From contig CAZDXI010000001.1 of NCBI GenBank assembly GCA_964509095.1, positions 1 to 53,447 of the forward strand: a stretch of 53,447 nucleotides of DNA. The letters are read 5' to 3'. The notes under the pieces are model-generated. The model ran no database searches. It worked only from the letters and a program-made list of their open reading frames with translations, and had not been told where the DNA came from. A program made the position numbers and the translations under genes. This document shows positions 193 to 50,999 of the stretch, in pieces. The stretch's first letter is position 1; every line of letters starts with the position of its first letter. Source of the stretch: an uncultured Rhodobacterales bacterium. GTDB lineage: Bacteria; Pseudomonadota; Alphaproteobacteria; Rhodobacterales; Rhodobacteraceae.

Positions 193-1335
193 CTAGGTTT
201 CTTGGACTGGAGTTTGCGGCACGAGCCGGTTTACCAGTTTGCGGGTTTCGTCCGGGGTTTCGACAAAGTGCGACACGGGCAGATCCAGCAAGGTGCGGCT
301 TTTTTCACGAATGTCGTCCCGGTTGTTCAACAGCGATTCCATCAGTTCAGGTGCTGTGACATTTGCAGGTTCTCCAAACAGCCATCCGGCTTTCCAGCTC
401 ATGATTTTTTGACCAGTTTCCGTCCCAAGAGACCCGATCGCGGGTACGCCGTAATATCCACCCTCATAGATACGGTTGGGGATTTGCCAGATCGAGTTCC
501 GTTCCGCTTCGAACCAGTCGCCAGCCCAGACGATGTCAAAGCTGCTGTAGATCCGGGGCAGGTCAACTGCGCTGTCATAGCGCCCATGATATGTGATGCC
601 CTTTGCACGCTCCAGTTCGTCTTCGAAATCGGGAAAGACAGAGCGGGCTGGGTAGCCATGCACATGGATTTCGAGACGGTCGTGAAACATGTTCCCCAAC
701 TGGCACAGCAGGTCCAAAGACCGACGGCAACGCAGGTTGCCAATCCAGCCGAGCTTGAGCTTGGAGCCGTCGGGCGTCCGGGGTTGGGAGGGGCGCCCAC
801 GGACGTCCCCTGAGTTTAGCCGGTTTTCGACAAGCCAGCCGTCGAAGCGACCGGGGTGATACACATCGAAATAGACCTGTCTGTACCGATTGGACGAATA
901 TACCAGCAATTCGCTGCGACGAAGCAGGGCGGCTTCCAACCGGCGAAGTACCCAGCTGACTGGATTGCGAGCGACCATCAGCCGATGGATGTCCAAACAT
1001 TCATAGACAATCGGCACCGACAGGCGGTTGCGCCAACGGAACGCATGCGCACAGGCGAGCATGTCGAGGTTACGGGCATAGATCACATCGATCCCGGCGA
1101 GTTCCGGATGGTTTTCGGGAGTGATCCGGAGCGATCTGAGAAACGGCCGCAGGCGGCTAAGGTAATCATTGTCCCGCGTTTGACCCAGCGAGACAAAGTC
1201 GAACGCCGCCGTTTGAGGCGCTCCGCGGTGAGGCATGATGCCAACCAAATCAAGCCCACAGTCCGCGAAGGCGCGCGCCCGTTTACGCACGGCGGGTTCG
1301 TTGACGTTATGCCCGAAGAAGGCCAGTTTGGTCAT
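193..1335 (-). CDS. exoL: Succinoglycan biosynthesis glucosyltransferase ExoL-like (GT-B fold)
   Basis: N-terminus FFGHNVNEPAVRKR, plus YARNLDML, VYECLDIHRL, IPNRIYEGG, all typical of ExoL. ATG at 1335 preferred over the ORF-track start at 1353. Confidence 0.85.
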   Translation of the reverse strand: MTKLAFFGHNVNEPAVRKRARAFADCGLDLVGIMPHRGAPQTAAFDFVSLGQTRDNDYLSRLRPFLRSLRITPENHPELAGIDVIYARNLDMLACAHAFRWRNRLSVPIVYECLDIHRLMVARNPVSWVLRRLEAALLRRSELLVYSSNRYRQVYFDVYHPGRFDGWLVENRLNSGDVRGRPSQPRTPDGSKLKLGWIGNLRCRRSLDLLCQLGNMFHDRLEIHVHGYPARSVFPDFEDELERAKGITYHGRYDSAVDLPRIYSSFDIVWAGDWFEAERNSIWQIPNRIYEGGYYGVPAIGSLGTETGQKIMSWKAGWLFGEPANVTAPELMESLLNNRDDIREKSRTLLDLPVSHFVETPDETRKLVNRLVPQTPVQET

Positions 1336-1524
1336 TACCGTACACTGGAGCACACTTGGTTCGCCGTACCAGGGGACTCCATACTCGCATTGTTGTCGTT
1401 TCAGTCGCGGGCGGACCTAGTGCCAACCCACGTATTATTCAGCATCACAACGTTAAGCGCCCTGTGTGACAATAGATACCGTTGTCTGCGGGCAAATCCC
1501 GCAAAACACGGGTGCAGATTCGGA

Positions 1525-2370
1525 TCAATCGGCCCTGCGTGCAACCCAGAGTATTTCAGCGGGGTTGAGCCGCTTGCTTTTCTGAATCGCTTCAGGAATC
1601 TGATCGGGGCCGAACGCACTCACTTCAAAGCCGGTCTGCCTTAGGCGATTTACGAAGTCCTCGCGGCTGTAGATCCGCACATGATCTCTTTGGGCAAAAC
1701 GCCGTTTTTGTTCTTCGGGGTCATTGATCCACGGGTCTTCGACCGTTTCAGCCCCATCAATGGCCTCCGGGCCAATGAACAGCGCATATCCATCCTGACG
1801 CAGAATGCGATGCACTTCTTGCATGGCTTTGTGGTCATCGGGGACATGTTCCAGCACATGACTGACCACAACGACATCAAAGCTTTCATCCGCAAAGGTC
1901 AGCTGTGTCAGGTCCTGCTTGGTCACATTGGGAACGATTGTGTATCGCTCGGGCGACAAATCTGTCGGGACGTAGTCGATCTTCTTTTGCCGTTCCAACC
2001 AGTAGTACATCCCGATGTCAGGCGCGACATGCAGGAAGCGCAAGGGCCGCTGTCCGACAGCGCCTTCGGTTTCAAGGAAGTGGCACATAAGGCGCACCCG
2101 ACTGGCCCCATAGCAGACCGGGCAAATGTCATTGGCAAAAGGCAGGGCACCGACAATTTGGCGCTTCTGGACAATTGGCAGATCGACACCGGAATTGCTG
2201 AAATGAGACACGTCAGACTGGCAGAGATCACACCGCCCAGCGGTGCCGCGAAACTGCTGCTTGCGATACATCAGGCGAATTTGGCGCGGGACATGTCTGG
2301 ATAGACCCGATCGCAGGGATTTTGCCGCTTTTGAAAGTCGGCTCCTACGCGTCGTCACAGGTAATTGCAT
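1525..2370 (-). CDS. Class I SAM-dependent methyltransferase with N-terminal CxxC...CxxC
   Basis: LHVAP, DLTQLTFADESFDVVVVSHVLEHVPD and EVHRILRQDG motifs. Start uncertain (2370 chosen; ORF extends to 2553). Confidence 0.8.
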   Translation of the reverse strand: MQLPVTTRRSRLSKAAKSLRSGLSRHVPRQIRLMYRKQQFRGTAGRCDLCQSDVSHFSNSGVDLPIVQKRQIVGALPFANDICPVCYGASRVRLMCHFLETEGAVGQRPLRFLHVAPDIGMYYWLERQKKIDYVPTDLSPERYTIVPNVTKQDLTQLTFADESFDVVVVSHVLEHVPDDHKAMQEVHRILRQDGYALFIGPEAIDGAETVEDPWINDPEEQKRRFAQRDHVRIYSREDFVNRLRQTGFEVSAFGPDQIPEAIQKSKRLNPAEILWVARRAD

Positions 2371-2605
2371 ATGAATAACAACATGGTGATTAATAAGGTT
2401 CAGCGTACGCATTTTCCAAGGCTTTGTAAACATCTGTAGCTGGCGCGTTGCCACTGAAAAAGCGTTTGAAAATAAATAAAATTTCCTGATCTCTGCCATC
2501 TGAAAGCTGCCTACAGAATGGGCAGTGGTCACCCAGCTTTGCCTGTTGCACAATGCCTATTGCGAGGCCTGTTGCGGGGCCCTGTCAGGACAGACCCAGG
2601 CTGAA

Positions 2606-3829
2606 CTAGCGCAGCGGATATCTCTTGGCATAAACGGCCCCGATCCACAGCAGCATATTCGCCATGATCAGCGGGCCCATCAGAGAGCTTTCAACAAAAC
2701 CGCGGATCAACCCAACCATTGCCACGGTTGGAAAGAAGATGAACGGCATACCGCCCCGCACCAGAAGCTGTGCAAAGATCTGATACGTCGCCCAAAGCAG
2801 TGTGAAGAGAGTCAGGCCCAGACCTATCAGCCCAAAATGTACGGTGACTTCATAAAATGAGTTGTGGAAGGAAAATACCTGCTTCGGACTCTTGTGGAAT
2901 TCGGCAAAGATCTGTCGGACCAGATCATTTTCCTCGTAACGCCAAAAGCCACCCGCGCCATAGCCGATCCAAGGGCGTGTGCGGATCACATCCTCTGCAT
3001 ATGCCCAGAGTTCCGTGCGCCCGGTCAGCGTGCTGCTTTTGCCCAGAGCCCCCAGAAGATAGGACACGGGTGATACGGACATTTGCGCCACAAGCGTGGG
3101 GATCGCGACGCCCAGTATACCCGCGATGATCAAGGTGACCGCTGCCCGGTCCACCGGAGTGCGAGCACCGTGCCCCGCAAAAAAGCTGAAGCCAACAACC
3201 GCCATACCAATCACAACAGCAAGGACAAGGGCTGTCGCGGAATGGCTGGCCAGAATCAGGGCAAGAGCCAGCGCCGCAAGACCCAAGGCGCAAACGCGGA
3301 CCCAAGCGCGAATCCAGCTGTCCAACGCGATGCAGATCGCAGCACACCACAACAACAGCATCTTTGCCCCAAGCATGTTCTTGTGCGCAAAGATGCCTGT
3401 CATCGCGCCGTCATGATAGGACGTGATGAAAACGCTTAGAACGCCGCATATGCCCGTTGCTGCGAGCACGGTCAGGACGATCTCTCGGGGGCGCATCCAC
3501 ACGACAAACAGGACGCAGACCTGAATGGTTAGGATCATCTGGATGGCGCGCTTCAGGGCCACATCGGGGACTTCCGCAAAGGGCGACATGATCAAGGCCC
3601 ACAGCGGCAACAACAAAAGAGGCCAAGCCCGCAGAAAGATCGGAAAGGTTTCCTGCCGGAACCGAACGAAGGCAAACACGTAAAACAACGCAAGCGGGTA
3701 CAGGATCAGCTCGTCTCGGGGAAATGTCGTGAAGGTGACGACAAACCAGAAGACGGTCAGGTACTTTTCAAAGGGCCGGGCCGAAAGGGAAAACGACGAA
3801 GGGGCAAACCTTGTAACACTGGCCGTCAT
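2606..3829 (-). CDS. exoQ: O-antigen ligase/Wzy-family polysaccharide polymerase (ExoQ-like)
   Basis: Multi-TM protein with GIFAHKNMLG, TLTGRTELW, RPWIGYG and FHNSFYE motifs, inside an exo cluster. Confidence 0.8.
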   Translation of the reverse strand: MTASVTRFAPSSFSLSARPFEKYLTVFWFVVTFTTFPRDELILYPLALFYVFAFVRFRQETFPIFLRAWPLLLLPLWALIMSPFAEVPDVALKRAIQMILTIQVCVLFVVWMRPREIVLTVLAATGICGVLSVFITSYHDGAMTGIFAHKNMLGAKMLLLWCAAICIALDSWIRAWVRVCALGLAALALALILASHSATALVLAVVIGMAVVGFSFFAGHGARTPVDRAAVTLIIAGILGVAIPTLVAQMSVSPVSYLLGALGKSSTLTGRTELWAYAEDVIRTRPWIGYGAGGFWRYEENDLVRQIFAEFHKSPKQVFSFHNSFYEVTVHFGLIGLGLTLFTLLWATYQIFAQLLVRGGMPFIFFPTVAMVGLIRGFVESSLMGPLIMANMLLWIGAVYAKRYPLR

Positions 3830-3946: not shown

Positions 3947-5563
3947 TCAGGTCTCCGGGTTTTTGGCGCAAATGCGCTGGTAATACGTAAACACAAGCGC
4001 CTGCGCATTGGGTCGATAGGGCGCAAGCTCAGATGGAACCGTGAGTGGTGTAGTCTGTTTTTGGTAACACTCGGCAAATTCAGGTAGGGCTTTCAATTCA
4101 ACCCCAGTCAGAAACCATTTTTCGGCGTCCGCGACGTCAATCCCTTCTGCCCCCCCTAAAATGATGTAGTCAGGTTGCCGGCTCAGGACATAAGCGGCGT
4201 CCCCTTTGCCATGCCCCGGCGTTTTCTGCCGCTGCGCCAGGAACGGGACATCGTCCCGCTTTGCGATGACCCGGTCATTCAGTCCGAGCATGTCGATATA
4301 CACATGCCCCCGACCAAAGAACGGAGTGGACCCGGCGGTGTTCAGCGCCACAACCGATCCCGCAGGCCAAGCGGTTTGGATATGTTGGCCCACAATTGTC
4401 CCGTTGAACGCCGCCCAATCCATCCGGAAACTGCGCGCGTTAAACGCCGCCACAACAAGCAAAAGCAGGCACAACAGACCCACATTGCGCCCCAGCGCAA
4501 CAGGCAGAGACCCAATCGCAGCAATCGCCAGAAGCGACAAAGGCCCAATGGCAGGCAGCAGAACACGTGCTGCGGCCATGTGGTCTCCACCGGACCAGAT
4601 CACATAGGCGAAAAAACCCAATGAAACAGTCAGCAAGACCCAAGCGATGCGCGACAAACGCCCCCAAATCAGGGCGACAAAAACCGCAAGCCCCGCGCAG
4701 GTGATGACAGGCAGGTAGAGCAAGGAGGACTTCAACAGATAGTCAGGAACTTTGGTGATCCGCTGCGCCAGATCCAACCCGACCTTGGCGTGGAACGTGT
4801 TCGGAACAACGTCACCATAGTAAGACACACGCCAGCCAAGATGCACCATGAAGACAACAAACGGTATCCCGGCAACGATCATACCCATGACAAGCCGCGT
4901 CCCGAACGGGCCTCTGACCAGAAACAGGATCGCGAAAAAGGTGACCGCGACAACGATAACACCGTCCGGCCGTGTCAGAACCGCAAGGGCAAACGCGAGC
5001 CCGCTCCAGATCAGGGGATGCCAGCGAAGACCTGTGTCCTGTGATGTCAGGCTGACCAACAGAAAGGCAAAGGCCCACGCAACGAACGCCGCCGCAAGCG
5101 GGGCTTCCAACCCGCCCAGAAGCCAGACCACAACAGAGATATTGCCAAGCACCAAAGCAACGCTCAGCGCTTGCATGTCCAGACGCGCCGGAAAAAGCGC
5201 ACGCACACCGTAAAAGACGGCCCCCACCAGCAGCACAATCGCCACCGCGTTGATGATCCGCACCGCAACGACCGGATCAACGCCCATCTGCAACAGCCCG
5301 GCCGTCAGCAACACATAGAGAAAGTTCGTATATCCTTCGATACGCTCCCCGATGTTCCAGGACATCTCACCGGCATTGGCCAAGTTGGTCGCGTATTTCA
5401 GAGAAATGAACGCGTCATCATGCAGGAAGAACCGATTGCGCCACAGATTGACACAGAACAGTACAATCCCCCCGACCAGCGCAATCGCAGGAAAGGATCG
5501 GCTCAGCACCCCGTACGTGGAAGAGGACGACCGATTATGCAGATCATCAGAGGACAAAGACAT
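3947..5563 (-). CDS. GT-C-type membrane glycosyltransferase, AftB-like (putative arabinofuranosyltransferase) #1
   Basis: HDDAFISLKYATNLANAGEMSWNIGERIEGYTNFLY after TM1, LTRPDG, YYGDVVPNTFHAK, C-terminal IDMLGLND...PGHGK. Start 5563 or 5584. Confidence 0.75.
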   Translation of the reverse strand: MSLSSDDLHNRSSSSTYGVLSRSFPAIALVGGIVLFCVNLWRNRFFLHDDAFISLKYATNLANAGEMSWNIGERIEGYTNFLYVLLTAGLLQMGVDPVVAVRIINAVAIVLLVGAVFYGVRALFPARLDMQALSVALVLGNISVVVWLLGGLEAPLAAAFVAWAFAFLLVSLTSQDTGLRWHPLIWSGLAFALAVLTRPDGVIVVAVTFFAILFLVRGPFGTRLVMGMIVAGIPFVVFMVHLGWRVSYYGDVVPNTFHAKVGLDLAQRITKVPDYLLKSSLLYLPVITCAGLAVFVALIWGRLSRIAWVLLTVSLGFFAYVIWSGGDHMAAARVLLPAIGPLSLLAIAAIGSLPVALGRNVGLLCLLLLVVAAFNARSFRMDWAAFNGTIVGQHIQTAWPAGSVVALNTAGSTPFFGRGHVYIDMLGLNDRVIAKRDDVPFLAQRQKTPGHGKGDAAYVLSRQPDYIILGGAEGIDVADAEKWFLTGVELKALPEFAECYQKQTTPLTVPSELAPYRPNAQALVFTYYQRICAKNPET

Positions 5564-8500
5564 CCGCTTCAGTCCACTCAGCACCGGTTATGGACGCAAA
5601 GAGCAAATCTCCAGACTGTTCGGCATTGCCCGTTGAATCGATGACCCCGTCTTCGTCGTTGAACTGATAATAGCGCAACAAGTCGGGTTCAGAGGCGTCG
5701 ATCACCTGATCAAAATAGTCGCTGATTTCGGTTGCACTGCGCGCATCATCCCAAAGTCGCAATTCGTCAAGCGTTCCGCCCAGAGCCTTGCTGTCGCGCA
5801 CATTGGTCGCGAGCTTCTCGATCACCAGATCGGCCGCCAGCGCATTGGTGCTTGTCGCATCCAGCACACCGTTCAGATAAATTGAGAAGTCATCGCCTTC
5901 TCGAACAAGCGCGAAGTGGTTCCAAACGCCGTCTGCCGCAACAGCAGTATTGGCGACAATGACGTCGGACGACCCAGTGGATTCCGTTGAATAGAGCCGC
6001 ATCTTGCCAGCATGGAAGTTCAGGTCGTTTCCGAACACCCCATCTGTGGCGCTGTCATCGCCGGGCGCGCTGTCATACACGCCACCCGTGATCGCCGCGT
6101 CATATTTGTTAAGATTGCTGCCGGTCTCGAAGGCGGCCCAGAACTCCACAGTATAGTCGCCCGTGATGGTAAGATCCTGAACATCCACGCCGCTGCCGTT
6201 GTTGACAGACAACAACGCACCGGGTGTTTCGACAGGTGTGCCGGGGTCCGTCACAGTGATCGTCGCGGTTGCCACGTTGGACCAAGCGCCTTCATCGTCC
6301 TGAACGCGGTAGGTGAAGCTGTCCGTGCCGGTGAAGGACGGATCCGTGGGCGCGTATTCCGCATGGCCATAGTGGCCTGCCGACATGCCGCGATCGATCA
6401 GCTCCTGTTCGGTGTCGATAATCTCAATCGTGCCGAAGCTGGGACCGCTGATCACCTCAACCATCTGCGGATTCAGCGCACCATCCGGATCATAGTCATT
6501 CATCAGGATGTGGATGTGGTTGGTCACCGGGTCAAAGCCCAGCGGAAGAGTATAGGCGTCATCCACGGCAACCGGAGGGGCATTGCCAACGTCAATTGCG
6601 ACACTGTCAAACGCCGTGGATGCGCCAAGCTCGTCCGTCACCGTCAGCGACACTGAATAAAGCCCAATGGCGCTATAGGTATGTGACGGTGCGGCGAGAT
6701 CTGAGGTGGTTCCATCGCCGAAGTCCCAGGCATAGGTCAGCGCATGGCCCTCTGCGTCCGTGACATCGGACTCAAAGGTCACAAGATGCGGTGCATCGGT
6801 GGCCATGTCTTCACCCGGATCCAGCACAATCCCCGTCCCGGTCGGTGCCGTGTTGGGTGGTCCCGCCTCACCATTGGTGATGATCAGGGAAATCGGCGCA
6901 GTAGACGTATCCGTCCCGTCACCGATCACATAGCCGATGGACGCCGCGATGCTGTCACCCTCTGCCAGCCCGGCGAAATCGTTATCCCGGTCTTTGAATT
7001 CAACCGTGCCATCCGAGCCGATGCGGAACAGCCCACCATTGTCCGACCATGTTTTCAGGCGGCCTGAATTGTCGAAATTGGCGGCCGTTGTTGGCAGGCC
7101 ATTGCCTTTGTAGCCGTCCAGTTGCAGCAGATTGAATCCGGTGCCCGCATCCGTGTCATTGGTGAACAGGTTGTAAGGCAGGGTTATCCAGTTCCCGCCT
7201 GTCAAGTCGGCCAGATCGACTGACATCGTATCCCCAACCGCCGCAAGCACATCAGGTGGTGTGTCCGTCACAGTGATCGTCGCGGTTGCCACGTTGGACC
7301 AAGCGCCTTCATCGTCCTGAACGCGGTAGGTGAAGCTGTCCGTGCCGGTGAAGGACGGATCCGTGGGCGCGTATTCCGCATGGCCATAGTGGCCTGCCGA
7401 CATGCCGCGATCGATCAGCTCCTGTTCGGTGTCGATAATCTCAATCGTGCCGAAGCTGGGACCGCTGATCACCTCAACCATCTGCGGATTCAGCGCACCA
7501 TCCGGATCATAGTCATTCATCAGGATGTGGATGTGGTTGGTCACCGGGTCAAAGCCCAGCGGAAGAGTATAGGCGTCATCCACGGCAACCGGAGGGGCAT
7601 TGCCAACGTCAATTGCGACACTGTCAAACGCCGTGGATGCGCCAAGCTCGTCCGTCACCGTCAGCGACACTGAATAAAGCCCAATGGCGCTATAGGTATG
7701 TGACGGTGCGGCGAGATCTGAGGTGGTTCCATCGCCGAAGTCCCAGGCATAGGTCAGCGCATGGCCCTCTGCGTCCGTGACATCGGACTCAAAGGTCACA
7801 AGATGCGGTGCATCGGTGGCCATGTCTTCACCCGGATCCAACACAATCCCCGTCCCGGTCGGTGCGGTGTTGGGTGTTCCGGCACCCTCAAGGGTCAGCG
7901 AGATTGTCGCGAGATCAACATCGTCGCCATCCGCAATATCATACGTGATGGATGTCGTGATGCTTTCGCCTTCTGCGAGCCCGGCAAATTGCAAGTCCCG
8001 GTCGCGGAATTCAACGGTACCATCTTCGTAGACGCGGAACTGGCCCCCATTGTCGCCCCAGATCCAGCCATAGCGCCCGGAATTATCAAGGGTATTGTCC
8101 GCCTTGGGCAGGCCAGTCACCTTGTAACCGTCAATGCCGGTAATCCCGAACGGATCTCCGGTCGGGTTGGTATCATTCGCCAGCACATTGCCGATCACAT
8201 TGACCGCATTGCCATCAAGCGTGTCGACCTCTCGTGTAAATGGATCGTCAACCGCGTCCACAGGCCCCACAACGGCGCCTTGCACATAGACAGGCCGGAT
8301 CGTGCTGTCCGCCTCGGGGACGACAAAGGTCCGCGCGGTTGTGGTGATCGAAGGATCGTCCTCCCAATGAGAGAAATCCCACTGGAACCCACCATCAATG
8401 TAGGAACTCTGCACATCCAGTGTGTGATTGAACCCAACCATGTTGTCGCGCACCTGATCCCCGGTGAACGCGATCCCGTCGAGGTAAAAAGTGAACCCGG

Positions 8501-12737: not shown

Positions 12738-12924
12738 ATTGGCCGTCCTCAAACACCGAACATTTCCAGCGCGCCGTAAAAATGACTTAAACACACACCA
12801 TTTTGTTGCTTATCGGCGGAAAATCACCGAAAAACGAGTGGCGTCAACACCGAACTCTTGCAATGGTGGAATTGACGCTACTTTGAGTCACACACTCGTT
12901 AGATGGAACTGTACACAACCTCAC

Positions 12925-13206
12925 ATGTTTTTGTTCCGATCCACCCTACTGATATGCGCCATGATCTTCGGCGCAATAATGCTATCGTCAGCACTTGGCG
13001 GGAATGTCTGGTTGTGGGTGATTGGCGCGTGGTTGATTAGCGGTCCGCTCGTCGTGGCACTTGCATTTGTCGCACCACCACCCTCTGCGTCACCGCAAAG
13101 CGTGGAGGACAGCGAACACGCCGCTGTCCCTTCAGTAAGCGCCTCCGGTCTGCAACCCGAGAAACTTGCGCGCAGTTACCAGAACGATCCAAATATCCTT
13201 CCATAG
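12925..13206 (+). CDS. Putative small membrane protein (93 aa, two hydrophobic segments)
   Basis: ATG 12925; hydrophobic N-terminal half and polar tail. Fills the flippase-exoY gap and overlaps the exoY 3' end by 75 bp. Confidence 0.35.
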   Translation: MFLFRSTLLICAMIFGAIMLSSALGGNVWLWVIGAWLISGPLVVALAFVAPPPSASPQSVEDSEHAAVPSVSASGLQPEKLARSYQNDPNILP

Positions 13207-34893: not shown

Positions 34894-35104
34894 AAATGTG
34901 TACCCAAAAAAACAAACGCGAAACTTAAATCGATATCCGTCCGGCGCAAATAACACCGGTCACAGAATGGGCTTAGACCTTCATGTTTTTCAGGTTTTGA
35001 CCCAACACCATCACCCCATGCACAGAACTTTACATCCAACTTGGGCTGATGTCCCGTGCGATTTGCCTTACGGTAAACCCTGAACATAAAAATCCGCGAC
35101 AACC

Positions 35105-35929: not shown

Positions 35930-35930
35930 C

Positions 35931-41752: not shown

Positions 41753-42940
41753 GTGACCCAGATTTCCGCGATCGTTCCGACGTTCAACCGAAAAGCTTAT
41801 CTGCTTCAGGCGCTGGAGTCGCTGCACGCCCAGACTCGCCCGGTGCACGAGATTATCGTGTGGGACGACGGGTCAACCGATGGCACCGAGGACACCATCC
41901 GCCCCCTTGTCGGGCCCGGTCTCATCTATCACCGCGCCGAGAACGCCGGAAAGTCCGCAGCGCTGAACAAGGCTATGACGTTGGCCAGCGGTGATTACAT
42001 CTGGATCTGTGACGATGATGACCTTGCCGTGCCGGACGCAGCCGAGCGTCTGGCGGAGGTTCTGGACCGGGACCCGACAGTCGGTGTGTCGGGCGGAGGT
42101 TATCACCGTTTTCGCGACACCGAAGCCGGGCATGATCTGTCCGGTCCGGGATATTGGCCTGATTTGAGCTCTGGCAGCCCAATGCGCCATCTTCTGGAAG
42201 ACATCTTCCTGTTTCAGAACGCTACTCTGGTGCGGCGCAAGTGTTATGATCAGGTGGGTCCGTTCCGCGAAGACCTCGCCCGCTCAATTGACTACGACAT
42301 GATCGCCCGGCTCGCGACGCGTTTTCCCGTGCATATGAGCGACGAGGTCGTCTTTTTGCAGCGCAAGCATGACGGCGACCGGGGTCCGGCCCATCAGCGA
42401 CACGCGGCGTCCAGCGTCGACAGTGTCTGGGCCGCGCAGGATCGGGTTGTCTTTGAAGGATTACGCACGCACATCCCGATCTCCCTGATGGCGGCGATGT
42501 ATGACGGCACATCCGAGGAAACGCAGCGCGCCGCTCACATCCAGCGCGCCTGTATCTTTGCCCGCCATGGTCTGTGGACTGATGCCTGTGACGATCTGGA
42601 CGCCGCAGCACATCTTGCAACTGACCTTGCGCTGGGCCCGGTCGAGACCGGGGCGTGCCGCAGGGCTGTCTCTGGCAAACATGGTGTAGGGTTGTCTGCA
42701 GATGATCTGCGCCGCCTGTCGGAACTCAAACGGGTGTCCCCTGTTGGGCGTCAGATCGTCCGCAGTCTGGGGCGGGGTCTTCTGTGGTCGCTGCGTCAGG
42801 GTGTGTCCGGCGGCGACGTGCGCCTTGTGACCCGGCTGGGTCGTATTCTGATGACAACAGGTGTTCAGAACACGGCGCGCGATGGCACGTCGCAAGTGCA
42901 GGAACGTCAGACCCTGCCTTTGTCGGCCTACGACTGGTGA
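41753..42940 (+). CDS. Glycosyltransferase family 2
   Basis: ISAIVPTFNR, WDDGSTD, NAGKSAALN, ICDDDD, SIDYD. Confidence 0.88.
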   Translation: MTQISAIVPTFNRKAYLLQALESLHAQTRPVHEIIVWDDGSTDGTEDTIRPLVGPGLIYHRAENAGKSAALNKAMTLASGDYIWICDDDDLAVPDAAERLAEVLDRDPTVGVSGGGYHRFRDTEAGHDLSGPGYWPDLSSGSPMRHLLEDIFLFQNATLVRRKCYDQVGPFREDLARSIDYDMIARLATRFPVHMSDEVVFLQRKHDGDRGPAHQRHAASSVDSVWAAQDRVVFEGLRTHIPISLMAAMYDGTSEETQRAAHIQRACIFARHGLWTDACDDLDAAAHLATDLALGPVETGACRRAVSGKHGVGLSADDLRRLSELKRVSPVGRQIVRSLGRGLLWSLRQGVSGGDVRLVTRLGRILMTTGVQNTARDGTSQVQERQTLPLSAYDW

Positions 42941-43923
42941 CGCCCCCCGGTCACGACCCTGCGGGAGCGCAGATATACCTGACCCAGCAGCTTGCCTGCC
43001 AAAGACAGCACCACGCTGGGTGGCGCCACAAACGCCCCGATCATGGAAGAGATGTCGCGCGCCTTGACCGCATCGATCAGGCGCCGCCAAGCCCATTCCT
43101 TGTGCACATCAATCCGATGCGCGCGCAGGGCAACCTTGTCCTGTGCCGACAGGTTCGGGTGGCGTGCCAGTGCCAGATCCGCAGTCACAATCGCCCCCAG
43201 ATCAGCCGTACTATGTTGCGAACTGAGAGAGTCCCCGCGATACACCGCGAAATAGCCTCTTGGATCGACCAGACGAAAGGCCGCCCCGGCGGCTAGTGCT
43301 TCGGCATACAGCAGATAATCCTCGGCCAGCCGCAGATCGGGATCATAGGACAGCCCGGACTCTTCCAGAAACTGCCGCCGCATCAGCGGTTTTACGAACC
43401 CCAGTTCGCCACGTCCTCCGTACCGATCTCGTCGGTTTCCTGTCACGAAGGCATCGAAGGTGACGTCCATCCGACCAAAATCAGTGGCGCTCCACAAACG
43501 GTGATCCGTGGCGTGCAGATCCGTGTCGCGAACCCGGTACAAATCATCCGCCAGCAGATCGAGCCCATCGGCCTCGGCTTCTTCTACAAGCCGTGCAATG
43601 CGGTCCGGGGCCATGTGATCATCTGCATCCAGCACGGCGATCCATGGGGTTGAGCTTTCCGCGATCCCACGATTGCGCGCCGCCGCCGGACCGCCATTTT
43701 TTGGCTGCCGAAACACGCGAACCGCCGGGTCCTGCTGGCTGAACTCTTCGGCCAGCGCATGGGTGCCATCATCCGAACAATCATCCACAACGATGATCTC
43801 GACCGGGACTGTCTGGGCCTGAGCAGACCGGATGGCCCGTGCCAGCGTATCCGACGCGCGATAGGCCGCGATCACAATGGCCGCAACCGGTTCAGGCGCC
43901 TTAGACCCGTGCGCCGCATCCAT
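42928..43923 (-). CDS. exoU: GT2 glucosyltransferase, ExoU-like
   Basis: IVIAAYRA, GGPAAARN, VLDADD, RGELGFVKPL, LRLAEDY, SLSSQHSTADL. Confidence 0.78.
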   Translation of the reverse strand: MDAAHGSKAPEPVAAIVIAAYRASDTLARAIRSAQAQTVPVEIIVVDDCSDDGTHALAEEFSQQDPAVRVFRQPKNGGPAAARNRGIAESSTPWIAVLDADDHMAPDRIARLVEEAEADGLDLLADDLYRVRDTDLHATDHRLWSATDFGRMDVTFDAFVTGNRRDRYGGRGELGFVKPLMRRQFLEESGLSYDPDLRLAEDYLLYAEALAAGAAFRLVDPRGYFAVYRGDSLSSQHSTADLGAIVTADLALARHPNLSAQDKVALRAHRIDVHKEWAWRRLIDAVKARDISSMIGAFVAPPSVVLSLAGKLLGQVYLRSRRVVTGGRHQS

Positions 43924-43926
43924 CGC

Positions 43927-44673
43927 TTACAGGCTCATCTTCTTGAAGATGCGTTCCGGGATGGCACAGATAATCCGCATCACCAGCCACCAGATCGGCT
44001 TCACATAGATCACGTTGCGCCCAGTCTCGACGCCCTTGAAAATCGCGTCTGCCACCTGTTCAGGTTCAGCCGTCAGGCGTTTGGGCAGGTCCATGCCTTC
44101 GGTCATGCGCGTTGCGACAAACCCGGGTTTCACGGTCAAAACATGCACATTCCGGCTGGCCAGCCGATTGCGCAGACCCGACAGGAACGCCGTGAACCCC
44201 GCCTTGGCAGAGCCATAGACATAGTTCGTGGCCCGGCCCCGGTCTCCGGCAACCGAACTTACCCCGACAAGGGCGCCCTGCCCGGCTTCGGCCATCTGGT
44301 TGGCAAACAATCCCAGAATCAGCGCGGGTCCTTCGTAGTTGGACCGCATGACCAGAGCAGCGGCGGCCGGGTCCTGTTCACTTCCGTCCTGCTCGCCCAT
44401 TGCGCCCACGACACAGACAACGACCGAAGGGGCGGGATCCAGACCAGCCACAAAATCGGCCATCGCGCCCGTGTCCAGAACATCAAACTCCGCCAGATCG
44501 ACAGAGACCTCATGGCGCAAGGCGATGTCCGCGCGATCCGGTTCCAGATCCGCAACCGACCGCGCCGCAAGCACGACGGATGCACCCGCCTTGGCAAATC
44601 GGCGGGCAATGGCCTGCCCGATATCTGATCGACCTCCCAGGATCAAAACAGTGTCAGATGAGGAGATCGTCAT
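43927..44673 (-). CDS. dprE2: SDR oxidoreductase, DprE2-like (polyprenylphosphoryl-2-keto-pentose reductase)
   Basis: LILGGRSDIG, SSVAGDRGRATNYVYGSAKAG, VKPGFVATRMT; directly downstream of the DprE1-like gene. Confidence 0.82.
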   Translation of the reverse strand: MTISSSDTVLILGGRSDIGQAIARRFAKAGASVVLAARSVADLEPDRADIALRHEVSVDLAEFDVLDTGAMADFVAGLDPAPSVVVCVVGAMGEQDGSEQDPAAAALVMRSNYEGPALILGLFANQMAEAGQGALVGVSSVAGDRGRATNYVYGSAKAGFTAFLSGLRNRLASRNVHVLTVKPGFVATRMTEGMDLPKRLTAEPEQVADAIFKGVETGRNVIYVKPIWWLVMRIICAIPERIFKKMSL

Positions 44674-46013
44674 AAGCGCAGTCTTTCGGATTGTGAGGAA
44701 GCAAAGGTCTGATCAAGGCTTTTGTCACGACGCATCTGTGCGAAATCGCCTGCGCGCGGGTCTGCCTTGTGCAAAGTCGTGGCTGCCAGTCTTGCGTCCT
44801 TGGCAAGGTAAAACCGCCCGCCATGTGCCACCGTGATGGCATCCAGACGGTCCAGCAACGCCAGAGTTTGTGCATTGGCCGGGAAGTCCAGCGCCAGCGT
44901 GTAGCCTTCCATGGGAAAGGAAAACCGGCTGTCCTGCGCGCCAAAACGCTTGAGCACCGCAAGGAAAGACCCTTGCCCAGCCTCTGAGGTCGCGTTCAGC
45001 AAGTCTGTCAGCCCCGCTTTGGACTGTGCCAGCGGCAGCACACACTGAAACTGAAGAAAACCGCGGCGCCCATAGATCCGGTTCCAGCCCAGGATCGCAT
45101 CCAGCGGATAAAAATACCGATCCCAATCCACGAGCGACTCTCCCGCGCTGCGCACGCCTTTGCGCCAGTAAAGGGCGTTGAAGGCCTTGACCGTCAGGCG
45201 GTTCAGCGCCAGCGCCGGGAAATCGATGGGGATGGTTTTCTTGCCGGGGCGCGGTGCCTGTAACGGGGTTGCGCGGTGTTCGGATGGCAGATCATCGGCG
45301 CGCGCATGTTCGCCCAGCATGATCAATGACCGCCCCAGATCAGCGCCCCCTGCCAGACAATCGATCCAAGCTACGGAATAGGTTGCGTCTTGTGCGGCTT
45401 CGAAGGCAGCCATTGCGGCATCCAGATTGGGGGCGACAACGGTCTCTTGCCGGATCCAAGCGCTTTCAACCGGGCGCAGTCGAAGCGCGGCACGCAGGAT
45501 CACCCCGGTCAGCCCCATGCCGCCGACGGTCCAGCCGAACAACTCCGGGGTTTCGGACGGGCTGACGCGCGTCACCTGCCCATCCGTACCCATCAGGTCT
45601 ATCCAGTCCACAAAACTGCCAAAGGAGCCATCCACGTGATGGTTCTTGCCATGCACATCTGCCGCAATCGCCCCTCCGAGGGAGACGAATTTCGTGCCCG
45701 GTGTCACATAGGGAAACCAGCCGCGCGGCAGGAACGTATCGATAATGTCTCCCAGCAGCACGCCGGCTTCGGCGACCAATTGACCGGTTTCAGCATCAAA
45801 AGACAGGAAGCGGTTGAAGGCCCGCATGTCCAGCGTCAGAGCCGCGCCCATGGCGCTGTCCCCGTAGGCGCGCCCATTCCCTCGGGCTACGATGCCTCCG
45901 GTTGGCATGTTGGTCTGCACATGGCGCCGGATGTCCGCTTCGCTGCGGGGGGCTCCCAGTGGTCCCGGACGCCGGGGATAGCGTCCCCAACCAGTCAGTT
46001 CGGTACTGTGCAT
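44670..46013 (-). CDS. dprE1: FAD-binding oxidoreductase, DprE1-like (polyprenylphosphoryl-ribose 2'-oxidase)
   Basis: LTGWGR, ARGNGRAYGDSA, PGTKFVSLGGAIAADVHGKNHH, YSVAWID, WNRIYG, FLQFQ, GGRFYLAKD. ATG 46013 overlaps the GtrA stop. Confidence 0.85.
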   Translation of the reverse strand: MHSTELTGWGRYPRRPGPLGAPRSEADIRRHVQTNMPTGGIVARGNGRAYGDSAMGAALTLDMRAFNRFLSFDAETGQLVAEAGVLLGDIIDTFLPRGWFPYVTPGTKFVSLGGAIAADVHGKNHHVDGSFGSFVDWIDLMGTDGQVTRVSPSETPELFGWTVGGMGLTGVILRAALRLRPVESAWIRQETVVAPNLDAAMAAFEAAQDATYSVAWIDCLAGGADLGRSLIMLGEHARADDLPSEHRATPLQAPRPGKKTIPIDFPALALNRLTVKAFNALYWRKGVRSAGESLVDWDRYFYPLDAILGWNRIYGRRGFLQFQCVLPLAQSKAGLTDLLNATSEAGQGSFLAVLKRFGAQDSRFSFPMEGYTLALDFPANAQTLALLDRLDAITVAHGGRFYLAKDARLAATTLHKADPRAGDFAQMRRDKSLDQTFASSQSERLRL

Positions 46014-46426
46014 CAGGCGGCCTTTGCGGTGACGGCATCTGTAAAGACATAGCGACGGTCCAACTGGTACTTGACCGTATAGCCCACGGCCAGCCCCAGA
46101 ACGGCCCCCAGTTCGCGCATGGCATCCGTGCCCCAGACGATCCAAAACGCGGTCTCTGTCACCCAGAAGATCAACGTGGTCACAACGCCCATGAGCGAAT
46201 AGAGAAAGAACTTCCGACTGTGTTGCGCGACCCCTGTGCTGTGGTCTTCAAAGATCCAGCGCTTGTCCAGAATGTACTTCAGCACCAAGCCGACCGCTGT
46301 GCCCATCACCACGGCTATCGCAAAGCCGATGGCCTCACTGTTGATCGCAAGGACCAGCCTTTGCATGGCCAGATTGGCAATTGTTGCCAGAACGGCAAAC
46401 AGAACATAGCGGGTCAATCGGGTCAC
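46013..46426 (-). CDS. GtrA family membrane protein (putative lipid-linked sugar translocase)
   Basis: 137 aa, 4 TMs, KYILDKRWIF and KYQLDRRYVF repeats. Confidence 0.88.
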   Translation of the reverse strand: MTRLTRYVLFAVLATIANLAMQRLVLAINSEAIGFAIAVVMGTAVGLVLKYILDKRWIFEDHSTGVAQHSRKFFLYSLMGVVTTLIFWVTETAFWIVWGTDAMRELGAVLGLAVGYTVKYQLDRRYVFTDAVTAKAA

Positions 46427-47874
46427 AGGAGAGATCCGGATACAGCACAGCCAAAGATGATCACCGCACAGATCAGCGATATCCGGTCCTTGGCCGCAAA
46501 GACCACAGGGTCGTCATGCATCCAGCCGCGATGCGAAATCATCACCATGCGGCTGAGCCAGAACAACAACACAAGGCAGATCCCCCAGAGTGCCGCCGGG
46601 GTGGTATAGAGCGTCGCCACCGCTTCTGTGTTCAGATACAGCGCCATCACGAGCACAGAGACATAGCCCGACGACACCGCCATGTTGGTGACAATGGGCA
46701 AATCTGTGTTTCGATAGCTGCGACCATGGGCCTGATCATTGCCGCTTGCCCCTCCGGCGACAAGCTCGGCCTGTCGTTTGACCGCCGCCAGTGCAAAGAA
46801 AAAGAAGATCGAAAAGGCCAGAAGCCAGACCGACAAGGTCAGCCCGGTGGCCACCCCTCCGGCGATGATACGCAGGGTGTAAAGCCCCGCGAGCGTGCAG
46901 ATATCGATCACCAGCAGCCGTTTCAAAAAGAACGAATAGGCCGTGGTGATCGCGTAATACAGCGCCATGACCCCGATAAACATCGGACCCAGAAAGGCCG
47001 CCAAACCAAAGCCGACAACCAGAAGTCCCGGTGCCAGAACCGTACCCCAAGCCAGTGGAAGGGTCCCGTTTGCAAACGGGCGCAGGCGCTTTCTGGGATG
47101 GGCGCGGTCGGCGGCAAGATCCAGCAGGTCATTCAGCAAATAGACAGAGGAGGCGATCAGACTGAACGCGACAAAAGCCAGCAGTGCTTGCGCCAGTGTC
47201 GCAACTCCGAACTGGTGCGCGGCAAGCAGCGGCAGGAAGACCAGAATGTTCTTCAACCACTGATGCGGACGCATGGCCTTCAGCAAAGGATTGCGGCGTC
47301 CATCGCGTGTCTTGAGATGTTCAACCACTGCGGCTTGAGTATCGACCTTTGCCGCGAGGGCTTCGGGCACATCCACCGTGACTGCCTTGGCCGCATCGCG
47401 CCAGATGGCCAGATCCGCTTCGGCATCCCCGACATAGGCGAACCTGCCGATGCCATAGGTCTCTTGCAGGTATTGGGCCTTGTTAGGCCCTTTCAGATTG
47501 TGCGTTCCGTCCGAGCCTCGCACATCATCAAACAACTGCAGATGGTCCGCAATGCGCTGCACGATGCGCTGGTTCGATGCAGAAACCAGTGCGGTCCGGC
47601 CGCCCTTGCTGCGCCAGTCCCGAACGTACTGGAGGATATCCTCGTTATAGGGCAGCAGGTCGGGATCAACCGGGCCCAGCTCTTCGAGCTTCTGTTTGAA
47701 CACCGCCTTGCCACTGCGCAACGCTTGCAAGGCCGGGATGATGTTGAGCCAACGCACCGACACCGCGGACCAGAATGTCTCGAACAGCATATCTGTGCGC
47801 ACCAACGTGTCGTCCAGATCAACAACAAGGACGACATCCTCAGCGCTCAGATTAAAACTATGTGCATCATCCAT
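46423..47874 (-). CDS. HAD-like phosphatase fused to UbiA-family polyprenyl-phosphate phosphoribosyltransferase
   Basis: N-terminal VVDLDDTL, VSAS, YVGD..AD. C-terminal MRPHQWLKN, YLLNDLLDLAADRAHPRKRLRP, AYSFFLK, KRQAE, HDDPVVFA. Confidence 0.88.
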   Translation of the reverse strand: MDDAHSFNLSAEDVVLVVDLDDTLVRTDMLFETFWSAVSVRWLNIIPALQALRSGKAVFKQKLEELGPVDPDLLPYNEDILQYVRDWRSKGGRTALVSASNQRIVQRIADHLQLFDDVRGSDGTHNLKGPNKAQYLQETYGIGRFAYVGDAEADLAIWRDAAKAVTVDVPEALAAKVDTQAAVVEHLKTRDGRRNPLLKAMRPHQWLKNILVFLPLLAAHQFGVATLAQALLAFVAFSLIASSVYLLNDLLDLAADRAHPRKRLRPFANGTLPLAWGTVLAPGLLVVGFGLAAFLGPMFIGVMALYYAITTAYSFFLKRLLVIDICTLAGLYTLRIIAGGVATGLTLSVWLLAFSIFFFFALAAVKRQAELVAGGASGNDQAHGRSYRNTDLPIVTNMAVSSGYVSVLVMALYLNTEAVATLYTTPAALWGICLVLLFWLSRMVMISHRGWMHDDPVVFAAKDRISLICAVIIFGCAVSGSLL

Positions 47875-48059: not shown

Positions 48060-49790
48060 TCAAATAACCCCCCAATCCTGCATGAATACAGCAAAAGCGG
48101 CAATCACGCCATTGGCAGTCACATGTGCCACAATTGCATCGCACAACCGTCCTGACGGGCGCAGCACCAATGCAGCAAAGACCAGACCGGCCAGACCTGC
48201 GGCAATCCAGCGATCATGCAACAGGGCAAAGGCAACTGTGCTGACACAGATCGCCAGAACGGCCCCCGCCACAGAACGTGCGGCCCCCAGTTTCTCCAGC
48301 AGGTAGGAGCGAAAGAACAGCTCTTCGACCACAGGGACAAGCACTGTCGTGCCCAGCACGCGCGTGACAACCCAGAGCACCAGCAAACCGGGTGCCAAAG
48401 TTTGAAGGGCGGCTGTCAGTGGTCCATAAGCCCCCGTGGTCGCTGTCATCAACCACAGCACACCGATCACACCCCCGGCAGCCACCGACAGCGGGTCAAC
48501 GCGCCAGAGCATCTGTTTCAGATGCGCGCGAAACACCCATAGCGACATGGCAACAAGCACAAAGCGCGCCGGATAGATCAGTGCAGGCGTTTGGGAAAAC
48601 GTGGACGCAAGCAGGGCTGAAAACATGAACACTGCAAATGGCAAAATGCGGGCCGCATTCCAGTCATCCCAAAACGCCGGGAGGGTCGGGGCTGGCGTAG
48701 GTGCCAAGCCGGGAGCCGAGGACTGGGAGACCACAGCGCTGGCGTCTGGACCGGCGGGGCGCTGGAACCACGACACCCGGTGCACCACAAGCACAAGAAA
48801 GATCGCGAGGATGGAAAACATCAGCCACCCCGCATGAGAATGAAACGCCCCTACTGCCAGGTCTGGCGACACATTCAGCCCGATCCAGATCAGCACCATG
48901 ATGCGGACCGTGTTCAGCCACCAAGACAGGAACAACCCGACCGGCAACACGACAAGCAAAACCCGGGCTGGCAGCAGATGACGCCAGAACAGGACCACAT
49001 AGCCCAGAAGAAAAGTTGTGATCAGCGCAAGGCCTTCAATGCCTGAACACCTCTCATCGATCTTGATTACGAACACGTCAGTACCCAGCAATGCCTCGGC
49101 CGGATTAGATTGCAGATCAAAGCCGAAGGCGCTCGCGCTCCATGCGACAGTGTCAAAGGTCAGAGTTTTGAACAGGTCCGAATGCCATAGCGGAAACACC
49201 ATCCGGCCAAGTTCCGGAAGACTGAGGCCGAAGACCAGCACCACCCACAAGCCGGGCCCTGCCTGTTTCAAAACCCGTCCCCAAACAGGCAGCGGGGCAA
49301 TCAGATGCAGCGCCACATAGCACAGCAAAGCCACCCCAACGGACCAGGAGATCAGACTGACCATCAAAAGACCGGGGGCCGGAAATGCCGTGTGATAGGC
49401 CATCGGAACCGCAGCCAGTAGTGCGCCCAGCCCTGCCAGCAACAGCATGGGTTTGAACGAACGCGGGGCTGCCAGCGCTGCCTTCACTGGCGCAAACAGA
49501 TCCGGACGGCTTAGCAACGCGATCCCAGTCAACACGATCACCGCCAAAGCACGTTGCACGATATCCAGAGAGAAGCGGCAAAACTTCCAAGACGCCACCT
49601 CTGAACACCGCTGGATGGACATTGGCGCAAACGACAATCCGATGACCGTCAGCGCGAAAACGTAAAACAAGGCGATCCACATCAGACGGCGCCACACCAT
49701 CGGAACCGGGAGGCTATGGGCACCGGTCCTGTCCGGACCATTATCGCGTACTAAAAAGTTAAACGCGGAAAGACTGCGTAAAAATGGCAT
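48060..49790 (-). CDS. xrtE: Exosortase E / CAAX (CPBP) protease fusion, VPEID-CTERM system type
   Basis: Exosortase triad CSGIEG, LNTVRI, FHSHAGW, followed by CPBP motifs VPVVEELFFR, FALLH, AHVTANG. Start uncertain (49700-49802). Confidence 0.85.
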   Translation of the reverse strand: MPFLRSLSAFNFLVRDNGPDRTGAHSLPVPMVWRRLMWIALFYVFALTVIGLSFAPMSIQRCSEVASWKFCRFSLDIVQRALAVIVLTGIALLSRPDLFAPVKAALAAPRSFKPMLLLAGLGALLAAVPMAYHTAFPAPGLLMVSLISWSVGVALLCYVALHLIAPLPVWGRVLKQAGPGLWVVLVFGLSLPELGRMVFPLWHSDLFKTLTFDTVAWSASAFGFDLQSNPAEALLGTDVFVIKIDERCSGIEGLALITTFLLGYVVLFWRHLLPARVLLVVLPVGLFLSWWLNTVRIMVLIWIGLNVSPDLAVGAFHSHAGWLMFSILAIFLVLVVHRVSWFQRPAGPDASAVVSQSSAPGLAPTPAPTLPAFWDDWNAARILPFAVFMFSALLASTFSQTPALIYPARFVLVAMSLWVFRAHLKQMLWRVDPLSVAAGGVIGVLWLMTATTGAYGPLTAALQTLAPGLLVLWVVTRVLGTTVLVPVVEELFFRSYLLEKLGAARSVAGAVLAICVSTVAFALLHDRWIAAGLAGLVFAALVLRPSGRLCDAIVAHVTANGVIAAFAVFMQDWGVI

Positions 49791-49967
49791 TGGCTGAAGC
49801 AAAACAAATGTTAAAAGTCACAAGAAATTATGCAAAAATCATAGGTCTGTCCGTTGAAGACAGCAAGAAATTACGACCTCAAATGCGGCGCTTGCATCTG
49901 AACAGACTGTTTCTGCCGCAGAACGCACTCGCATGAGTGGAATTATTAGGATGTGTGACACAAACCG

Positions 49968-50999
49968 ATGTCAGAAAGCGTTGAAGACAGCCATATGACC
50001 GGTCCGGGACCATTTCAGCCTGAGCACGTTCTTATTGCCATCCCGGCCCTGAACGAGGCCGCGCATATCGAATCCTGTATCCGGTCTCTTCTTGGGGGGG
50101 ACCCGGACTTGAAAGAGGTCCGGCTTGTCGTCGCTGACGGGGGCAGTCAGGATAACACGGCTGACATTGTGCGCGCTCTGACAGGTGACTTTCCCAATAT
50201 CCGGCTGATCGACAACCCGCAGAAGTACCAGTCTGCCGGTGTGAACGCGGTCGTGCGGGACTGCGCAGAAGACAGCCATATCTTTCTGGTCCGATGTGAC
50301 GCGCATTCGGTCTATCCACCCGGCTATGTGCGTCAGATCATCGACACCTTTCAGGCCATCCCAGACGCGGCCTCTGTGGCGACGGTGATGGATGCCACCG
50401 GAGACGCCTGCTTTCAAAGGGCCTCTGCTTGGATCGTGGATACGCCCTTTGGGTCGGGCGGTTCGGCCCATCGTGGCGGGTCCCGGTCGGGCTGGGTGGA
50501 TCATGCGCACCATGCGGGGTTCCGACTCGACTGGTTCCGGCGCATTGGCGGATATGATCCGGGCTTCACGCATAACGAAGATGCCGAATACGACCATCGG
50601 CTTGGCCTCGCAGGGGGGCGGGTCTGGCTCGCAACCGAGATCCGCATGGATTACCAGATGCGCCCCACTCCGCGGGGGCTGATCAAGCAATACTGGTCCT
50701 ATGGTAAGGGACGCGCACGGACGCTGCTCAAGCATCGCATGCGGCCCCGCCTTCGCCAACTTATCCCCGTGCTGAACCTTTTGCTGATCGCCTTTTGCCT
50801 TATGCTATCCGGGCTTTTGCCTGTGTTGCTGCTTTGGCCGTTTCTGTATCTGCTGGCCCTCATCGCCATATCCGTGCAATCGGTGCTGTCCATGCGCTCG
50901 CTCTGTGGCCTTTGGGCTGGTGTGGCGCTGGCCATCATTCACAACGCTTGGGCGCTGGGCTTCCTGAGCCAGCTGGGTCGGTGGCTTTTTCGGCGCTGA
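49968..50999 (+). CDS. exoA: GT2 glucosyltransferase ExoA
   Basis: IPALNEAAHI, ADGGSQD, QSAGVN, RCDAHSVYP, GSGGSAHR, DHAHH, HNEDAEYD, RLRQLIP. Alternative start 49995. Confidence 0.88.
   Translation: MSESVEDSHMTGPGPFQPEHVLIAIPALNEAAHIESCIRSLLGGDPDLKEVRLVVADGGSQDNTADIVRALTGDFPNIRLIDNPQKYQSAGVNAVVRDCAEDSHIFLVRCDAHSVYPPGYVRQIIDTFQAIPDAASVATVMDATGDACFQRASAWIVDTPFGSGGSAHRGGSRSGWVDHAHHAGFRLDWFRRIGGYDPGFTHNEDAEYDHRLGLAGGRVWLATEIRMDYQMRPTPRGLIKQYWSYGKGRARTLLKHRMRPRLRQLIPVLNLLLIAFCLMLSGLLPVLLLWPFLYLLALIAISVQSVLSMRSLCGLWAGVALAIIHNAWALGFLSQLGRWLFRR

Follow-up and report, generated by a model that had tools for sequence, protein, structure and literature searches.

A succinoglycan-type gene cluster of Rhodobacteraceae with several sulfotransferases and a predicted lipid-linked arabinofuranose system

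In Sinorhizobium meliloti, the glycosyltransferases ExoY, ExoA, ExoL, ExoM, ExoO and ExoU build a Gal-Glc5 unit on undecaprenyl pyrophosphate, and the repeat of succinoglycan, with Gal and Glc at 1:7, carries succinyl, acetyl and pyruvyl groups. We have analysed a cluster with this type of scaffold in an uncultured Rhodobacterales bacterium, on the 53,447-nucleotide contig CAZDXI010000001.1 of GenBank assembly GCA_964509095.1. This entire contig (C1) is called the window here, and coordinates are window positions with the strand given as + or −. The assembly comprises 3.46 Mb in 450 contigs and is 69% complete. The nearest named relatives of the window proteins are Roseobacteraceae, and seawater metagenome runs contain DNA near-identical to the window, the best-matching run being perhaps the source sample itself; no RNA dataset is among the listed matches, which says nothing about expression. 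The window shares exoY, A, L, M, O, U, Q, F, P, K and a flippase with the succinoglycan (exopolysaccharide I, EPS I) cluster of S. meliloti 1021, but lacks exoH, exoV and exoW, and gains four sulfotransferases (STs), four extra glycosyltransferases (GTs) and an arabinofuranose (Araf) system. The feature holds up and is conserved; it is neither succinoglycan nor a new kind of machinery, but a new combination of known parts: a succinoglycan scaffold, several STs and lipid-linked arabinosylation. From its genes, the cluster is predicted, with a probability of roughly 0.65, to make a multiply sulfated, arabinose-branched exopolysaccharide (EPS) of succinoglycan type via the Wzx/Wzy pathway.

Sulfation by an EPS cluster has a well described precedent in the synechan (xss) cluster of Synechocystis PCC 6803, in which two STs in a Wzy cluster account for two sulfates per repeat of a demonstrably sulfated product (Maeda et al. 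2021, PMC8205485). Likened by description, synechan and the window are both Wzx/Wzy EPS systems with STs of distinct subfamilies. Synechan differs in being cyanobacterial, in having two STs and in its Rha/Man/Gal/Glc repeat, and a lipid-linked pentose system goes unmentioned in the available portion of that paper, in which the authors also state that no other ST-bearing bacterial EPS cluster was known outside cyanobacteria (PMC8205485). On chemical grounds, however, sulfated EPS had already been listed for marine proteobacteria, a Paracoccus among them, in a 2014 review (PMC4189415), so that sulfated bacterial EPS is not chemically new. Succinoglycan genes in roseobacters were noted in a 2011 paper, whose accessible part draws no link to an ST. 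We found no account of this cluster type in the literature searched, most subscription papers being beyond its reach.

The EPS module on the 262-kb plasmid of Phaeobacter inhibens DSM 17395 has the same exo-type scaffold (exoA 51% identical) and one ST, PGA1_RS18150 (pPGA1_262, L002:4316-5230), which is distantly similar to the window's ST4; no arabinose genes occur within the 48 kb read. In the text available, Lipsman et al. (2024, PMC10984933) detected no sugar-modification genes around the P. inhibens clusters, and their knockout was of the chromosomal exoY. The arabinofuranose genes of the window find their counterparts in the Citrobacter youngae O1/O2 pentofuranose systems (Kelly et al. 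2024, PMC11127046) and in the mycobacterial decaprenyl-phosphoribose (DPPR)-DprE1/E2-AftB route, with the same phosphatase-UbiA fusion, small flippase, presumed epimerase pair and GT of the GT-C type. The window differs from the systems of Kelly et al. in that its acceptor is predicted to be a secreted EPS, its flippase is of GtrA type and its GT-C is AftB-like. In the main text of that paper, as accessed, "exopolysaccharide" and "Rhodobact" have 0 occurrences (PMC11127046).

The scaffold was compared with the pSymB exo region of S. meliloti 1021, a record that carries no annotation. Its genes were named by gene order, with exoH, exoV, exoZ and exoW checked by Pfam. All the exo genes named by an initial annotation of the window, and the flippase, proved to be orthologues of the S. 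meliloti genes, at 23-49% identity. The predicted backbone enzymes are the priming galactosyltransferase exoY (13132..13794, −; 49% to ExoY, PF02397) and the glucosyltransferases exoA (49968..50999, +; 40% to ExoA, clade support 99), exoL (193..1353, −; 35% to S. meliloti ExoL, E 1e-51), exoM (33056..33976, −; 47% to ExoM, in the same clade with an approximate likelihood-ratio (SH-aLRT) support of 97), exoO (31111..32103, −) and exoU (42928..43923, −; 37% to ExoU). In a quick tree of 83 GT2 proteins, ExoA, ExoM and ExoU of the window cluster with their S. meliloti counterparts (SH-aLRT 97-99); the placement of ExoO is not settled there, and its BLAST identity to S. meliloti ExoO is 42%. Assembly of Gal-Glc5 on undecaprenyl pyrophosphate by the six orthologues would follow, and this six-sugar part of the pathway probably works like that of succinoglycan. 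These orthologues predict one galactose and five glucoses, and the galactan proposed in the initial annotation is thus unsupported. Flipping would be carried out by the exoT-like Wzx protein (11289..12794, −; PF13440, 29% to ExoT in a partial match over 238 aa), polymerisation by the exoQ-like Wzy polymerase (2606..3829, −; PF04932, 29% to ExoQ), export by the co-polymerase and tyrosine kinase ExoP (38052..40388, −; Wzz, GNVR and AAA_31 domains, 23% to ExoP) with the outer-membrane protein ExoF (36823..38055, −; PF02563, 31% to ExoF), and trimming by the exoK-like GH16 endoglycanase (35913..36818, +; PF00722, 31% to ExoK), whose N-terminus is signal-like by hydropathy.

Beyond these six sugars the pathway appears to diverge from that of S. 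meliloti. No ExoW orthologue was found in the window or in the 69%-complete assembly, either by BLAST or in the GT2 tree, and the side chain would accordingly differ, extended by up to four extra GTs. These are the exoM paralogue GT2c (33973..34956, −; 33% to ExoM, in a sister clade), GT2d (41753..42940, +), the GT-B enzyme GT4a (16690..17859, −; weak PF13524, present in 8/8 related clusters) and GT4b (29867..31114, −; PF13692). GT2d was considered as a possible ExoW and rejected, as it forms its own clade, away from ExoW, with a support of 100. The reported absence of ExoH and ExoV from the window holds, and extends to the assembly, in which neither gave a tblastn match and PF04230 was not found either. 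No close exoZ was found, a weak AT3-domain match apart, and exoN and exoB lie on another contig, C73. The product therefore cannot be succinoglycan itself, and the gene content argues against a repeat with a Gal:Glc ratio of 1:7 and with succinyl, acetyl and pyruvyl substituents.

The four STs of the initial annotation are all present. ST1 (14084..15001, −) is of Sulfotransferase_1/3 type, over the Pfam cut-off; ST2 (32105..32911, −) is of Sulfotransferase_2 type (PF03567, E 7e-13); ST3 (35240..35929, +) is a divergent Sulfotransferase_2 type; and ST4 (40460..41476, −; PF13469) is related to heparan sulfate N- and 3-O-sulfotransferases. They are of four sequence types, where at least three had been counted, since no pair among them aligns at E<=1. 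ST3 itself is under the Pfam cut-off, which the other three exceed, and the case for it rests on family and fold: 71 of 97 aligned family members match Sulfotransferase_2 at E<=0.01, and its predicted model (mean confidence, pLDDT, 95) has only sulfotransferases among the top fold matches listed (best E 8e-6). A single-sequence search of the PDB gave 0 matches for ST2, and the ST3 family profile gave uninformative matches only. The motifs for binding 3'-phosphoadenosine-5'-phosphosulfate (PAPS), which we take to be the 5'-PSB and 3'-PB, are intact in all four: PRSGSTW and RHP in ST1, invariant in 9 sequences; RKNACSSF, invariant in 6 sequences, and R-P--R in ST2; KTAGTS and RNPW in ST3; and PKCGTTSL and RHPVSRAYS in ST4, aligned to NDST1. 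By hydropathy, none of the four has a hydrophobic or signal segment, and they are therefore probably cytoplasmic. ST1-ST4 would place sulfate on different hydroxyls, up to four in number, while the unit is still lipid-linked on the cytoplasmic side and has yet to be flipped, and the sulfates would provide the negative charge in place of the succinate and pyruvate of succinoglycan.

The STs are interleaved with the scaffold, as had been claimed, each adjoining an exo gene: the end of ST2 lies directly before exoO, ST3 overlaps exoK by 17 nt, ST4 lies ahead of exoP and ST1 ahead of exoY. These arrangements recur in eight relatives, obtained by scanning GTDB genomes with ST1, which confirmed 8 loci out of 57 candidates. 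They are Yoonia maritima, Y. ponticola DSM 101064, Loktanella S4079, Limimaricola pyoseonensis DSM 21424, Leisingera S232, Marivita GX14005 and two further Rhodobacteraceae/Roseobacteraceae assemblies, and they span five named genera. All eight have the same cluster type, with the gene order shuffled. ST1 in 8/8 is built in, because the relatives were chosen with ST1; ST4 is present in 8/8, ST2 and ST3 in 6/8 each, and all four STs in 5/8, the deposited Y. ponticola and L. pyoseonensis strains among them. Through the shuffling, ST4 stays directly upstream of exoP (8/8), ST2 directly upstream of exoO and ST3 beside exoK in all six relatives that have them, while ST1 adjoins exoY in six of the eight. 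Identities of the STs to the relatives' orthologues are 56-72%, on a par with the exo genes.

The pairing of exo genes and STs extends through the family. Among 400 family genomes, 48 match ExoA at E<=1e-55, and the 17 with E<1e-84 were kept; the 31 weaker matches (E 1e-57 to 1e-73) were left out as probable members of another GT2 clade, an assignment that is presumed. One of the 17 (G172) has the same map as G446 and was counted once among the eight relatives. Of the 17 close-exoA genomes, 12 have a Pfam ST match no more than 15 kb from exoA, 15 have one within 30 kb and 16 have one within 50 kb, when random scatter would give about 1, 2 and 3, respectively, although related genomes are not independent. 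The exo-ST pairing is common in the family and not peculiar to the source genome. Pyruvyltransferases occur in 11/17 of these genomes, in only two of them on the exoA contig, and ExoZ-like genes in 3/17; among 26 related loci, ExoH is found in none and ExoV in one. In G201:C4 62758-66490, the sole close-exoA cluster where exoA adjoins an ExoV homologue, no ST match lies within 25 kb, a hint that pyruvate and sulfate may be alternatives.

These data also bear on whether the STs modify the polymer. Some or all of them could be inactive on it or act on small molecules, leaving an EPS that is mainly acylated and arabinosylated. ST1 and ST3 do resemble cytosolic small-molecule SULTs among solved structures, and some relatives do without ST2, ST3 or both. 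We nevertheless consider this very improbable, given the invariant PAPS-binding motifs and the family-wide enrichment of STs near exoA. Similarity to solved structures reflects which structures have been solved, and ST4 has glycan sulfotransferases as its nearest among named matches in the PDB (NDST1, E 5e-11; 3-OST1, E 2e-10).

The initial annotation overlooked what appears to be a complete arabinofuranose gene set, in which ubiA-gtrA-dprE1-dprE2 are joined to exoU and accompanied by two AftB-like GT-C genes. It also passed over three to four of the extra GTs, the deacetylase and formyltransferase, a methyltransferase and a GMC oxidoreductase. The run from 47874 to 42928 comprises a HAD-UbiA fusion, predicted to be a polyprenyl-phosphoribose synthase with a phosphatase (46423..47874, −; Pfam HAD and UbiA, PRK08238 over cut-off, PRK12324 partial); a GtrA-family flippase for a lipid-linked pentose (46013..46426, −; PF04138 and NF037976 over cut-off); a DprE1-like oxidase (44670..46013, −; DprE1 in the PDB at E 6e-75, NF053785 at 424 of 500 bits); a DprE2-like reductase (43927..44673, −; NF053786 at 186 bits, cut-off 250); and, as its last gene, exoU. 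The overlaps between these genes, and the 3-nt gap between dprE2 and exoU, suggest one operon. Of the two GT-C proteins, which have no Pfam family and are homologous to each other, no. 2 (20309..21970, +) is assigned to AftB by profile and by fold: its profile (96 sequences) has AftB as the single PDB match (E 6e-19), with the DD motif aligned; G40-D42-D43 are invariant, forming the acidic motif after the first transmembrane (TM) segment; and AftB ranks first among GT-C folds for its model (pLDDT 94.6). Single-sequence PDB searches with both GT-Cs gave 0 matches. GT-C no. 1 (3947..5584, −; about 10 TM-like segments) is a likely arabinofuranosyltransferase by its homology to no. 2 only (26% over 489 aa).

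DprE1/E2 homologues mark Araf in three-component pentofuranose systems (Kelly et al. 2024, PMC11127046), and by this analogy the sugar is probably arabinofuranose. HAD-UbiA would convert phosphoribosyl pyrophosphate (PRPP) to polyprenyl-P-ribose, DprE1/E2 would epimerise it to arabinose, GtrA would flip it, and one or both of the AftB-like GT-Cs would transfer arabinofuranose to the polymer in the periplasm. The run ubiA-gtrA-dprE1-dprE2, with its small flippase, is present in 8/8 relatives and continues into exoU in 7/8; GT-C no. 2 is found in 8/8 and no. 1 in 5/8 related clusters. Three more of the 17 close-exoA genomes have the entire system. Another exo cluster (G115:C5 31038-34600) has ubiA, gtrA and a GT-C, with no dprE1 or dprE2 match within the 100 kb read, and ribofuranose is expected there instead.

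The sulfated heteropolymer of the initial annotation stands as the best reading, to which the neighbourhoods kept in the eight relatives and the family-wide enrichment add weight, but it is predicted to be a glucan with one galactose and Araf branches, perhaps with acyl, formyl or methyl groups, rather than a glucan/galactan with sulfate alone. It could be argued that the genes serve two glycans. The exo genes would then make a lightly modified EPS, perhaps with one sulfate from ST4; the other three STs, together with the acyl/formyl and arabinose genes, would decorate a lipopolysaccharide (LPS) O-antigen, the glycans of large secreted proteins or those on the targets of an exosortase. Those pentofuranose systems of Gram-negative bacteria that have been characterised modify O-antigens and pilin, in the part of the literature account that was available (PMC11127046). 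The window also encodes two large proteins of extracellular type and an exosortase E of a VPEID-CTERM system (48060..49802, over cut-off, between ubiA and exoA), and the Loktanella S4079 cluster is split into two blocks about 190 kb apart. Both Loktanella blocks, however, contain exo genes; exosortase E occurs in 0/26 related loci and was rejected as a component of the system; ST2 stays tied to exoO, ST3 to exoK and the arabinose-donor genes to exoU; and the outer-membrane export (OPX) protein with a tyrosine-kinase co-polymerase points to EPS or capsule export. We regard two separate glycans as rather unlikely.

Contrary to the statement that no PAPS-synthesis genes are visible, a PAPS source exists: the window begins, 141 nt after exoL, with the first 17 codons of a bifunctional Sat-CysC (ATP sulfurylase and adenosine-5'-phosphosulfate (APS) kinase; 1..51, −), cut by the contig end. 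The fragment matches the N-termini of Sat-CysC of congeners, a protein of roughly 570 residues that is present in 10/10 congeners and matches PF01747 and PF01583. Family searches over the assembly turned up a PAPS reductase of CysH size but neither APS kinase nor ATP sulfurylase, because the contig breaks at the sat-cysC start. Bases 1-55 of the window recur unchanged at the end of contig C83, and the assembly has 4 convergences of this kind in all; as assembly overlaps are 55 bases, C1 and C83 both run into one missing piece. The two contigs that meet at the sat-cysC start reflect either a second gene copy beside exoL or strain variation. One contig from public runs covers bases 1-55 and continues into a C83-type flank, with bases 56-301 uncovered, and an exact scan of metagenome contigs for the exoL-sat junction gave 0 hits. 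Sat-CysC would supply PAPS for the STs; APS kinase is encoded elsewhere in 22/24 carrier genomes, in single copy in 21.

Several observations weigh against a multiply sulfated, arabinose-branched EPS as the product. None of four public runs showed the exoL-sat junction, and Sat-CysC is in none of the relatives' clusters (0/26 related loci), so that a cluster-linked Sat-CysC was rejected as a general feature. Genome-wide checks did not find ST3 in G439, ST2 in G443 or either of them in G444. DprE1 and DprE2 both score under their NCBIfam cut-offs. An exoL orthologue was seen in 5/8 related loci and a close exoM in 4/8, and the backbone may therefore vary. As the assembly is 69% complete, exoH and exoV may lie elsewhere, and the products of other polysaccharide loci in it (C8, C18 and C24) could be acceptors. 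In Synechocystis, finally, loss of one ST gene, xssE, had little effect on the amount of EPS or on bloom formation, according to the accessible portion of the synechan study (PMC8205485).

The position of ST3 invites another explanation, in which ExoK or the G8 protein described below would release short oligosaccharides as the main functional product, a decorated signal to algae rather than a structural polymer. The two genes overlap here, and ST3 is still next to exoK in 6/6 relatives that have it. Nod factors likewise carry sulfate, arabinose, acyl and methyl decorations, and succinoglycan of short chain length has a role in rhizobial infection. The complete high-molecular-weight machinery of ExoQ, ExoP and ExoF has been kept, and we think an oligosaccharide as the main product very improbable.

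If the cluster does make a sulfated, arabinosylated EPS, the implications could extend beyond the source genome. Tentatively, and at somewhat less than even odds, we suggest a family-wide conversion of the succinoglycan pathway to sulfated EPS in Rhodobacteraceae, with one to four STs, to which one branch has added mycobacterial-style Araf. The sulfate-ester polymers of marine aggregates, usually credited to algae, would in that case have a genetically defined source in heterotrophic roseobacters, P. inhibens included, and trimmed oligomers might be Nod-factor-like signals to algae. The locus family ties ST-bearing EPS clusters to the chemically known sulfated EPS of proteobacteria. It offers a well-understood backbone, four unrelated STs in natural combinations of presence and absence, and cultured, deposited strains, so that two questions become open to direct test: by which enzymes, and at which positions, bacterial EPS is sulfated, and whether heterotrophs contribute to sulfate-rich marine aggregates. 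If the prediction is true, lipid-linked arabinofuranosylation extends to a secreted polysaccharide, and the STs may provide regiospecific glycan sulfotransferases for heparin-like polymers.

Further tailoring genes in the window would add optional groups to the polymer. According to the initial annotation, the STs stand instead of succinyl and pyruvyl transferases; this is too strong for succinyl, since a fused AT3-SGNH acyltransferase is present (17859..19922, −; PF01757 and PF19040, with an orthologue in 3/8 relatives). It has no similarity to ExoH and was rejected as such. Its best NCBIfam model is SucT, at 172 of the 1275 bits needed, and SucT succinylates mycobacterial cell-wall polysaccharides, as given in the part of the source that was available (PMC10503756); acylation, even succinylation, is therefore possible. 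A formyltransferase (15019..15816, −; PF00551) and a PIG-L-type de-N-acetylase (15813..16685, −; PF02585) are both in 6/8 related loci and both missing from 2/8, and the pair suggests an exchange of N-acetyl for N-formyl on an amino sugar. ST1 was considered as an obligate N-sulfotransferase acting after the neighbouring deacetylase. An obligatory pairing is ruled out, because at the level of loci ST1 is kept in the 2/8 without the deacetylase and formyltransferase. An S-adenosylmethionine-dependent methyltransferase (1525..2553, −; Pfam Methyltransf_11/23), with 31% homologues in 2 other exo clusters, might act in O-methyl tailoring.

The remaining genes are accessory. A GMC oxidoreductase (21986..23626, +; PF05199) adjoins GT-C no. 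2 in 8/8 relatives and also occurs in other exo clusters. The G8/beta-helix/LamG protein (25453..29328, −; Pfam G8, CEMIP_beta-hel and Laminin_G_3), found in 8/8 relatives, has a CEMIP-type domain layout that is common in these exo clusters, and is a possible polysaccharide-binding or -cleaving enzyme. An open reading frame without a Pfam family (23681..25315) shows a weak match to CarA through an asparagine-synthetase-like motif (E 0.06) and occurs in 0/26 related loci. The large LamG/GSDH/PKD/Ig protein (5547..11039, −; Pfam), probably extracellular, has orthologues in 5/8 related clusters. Its gene, which encodes 1830 aa, contains an internal repeat of 802 nt with 92% identity, at window positions 6246-7043 and 7263-8054.

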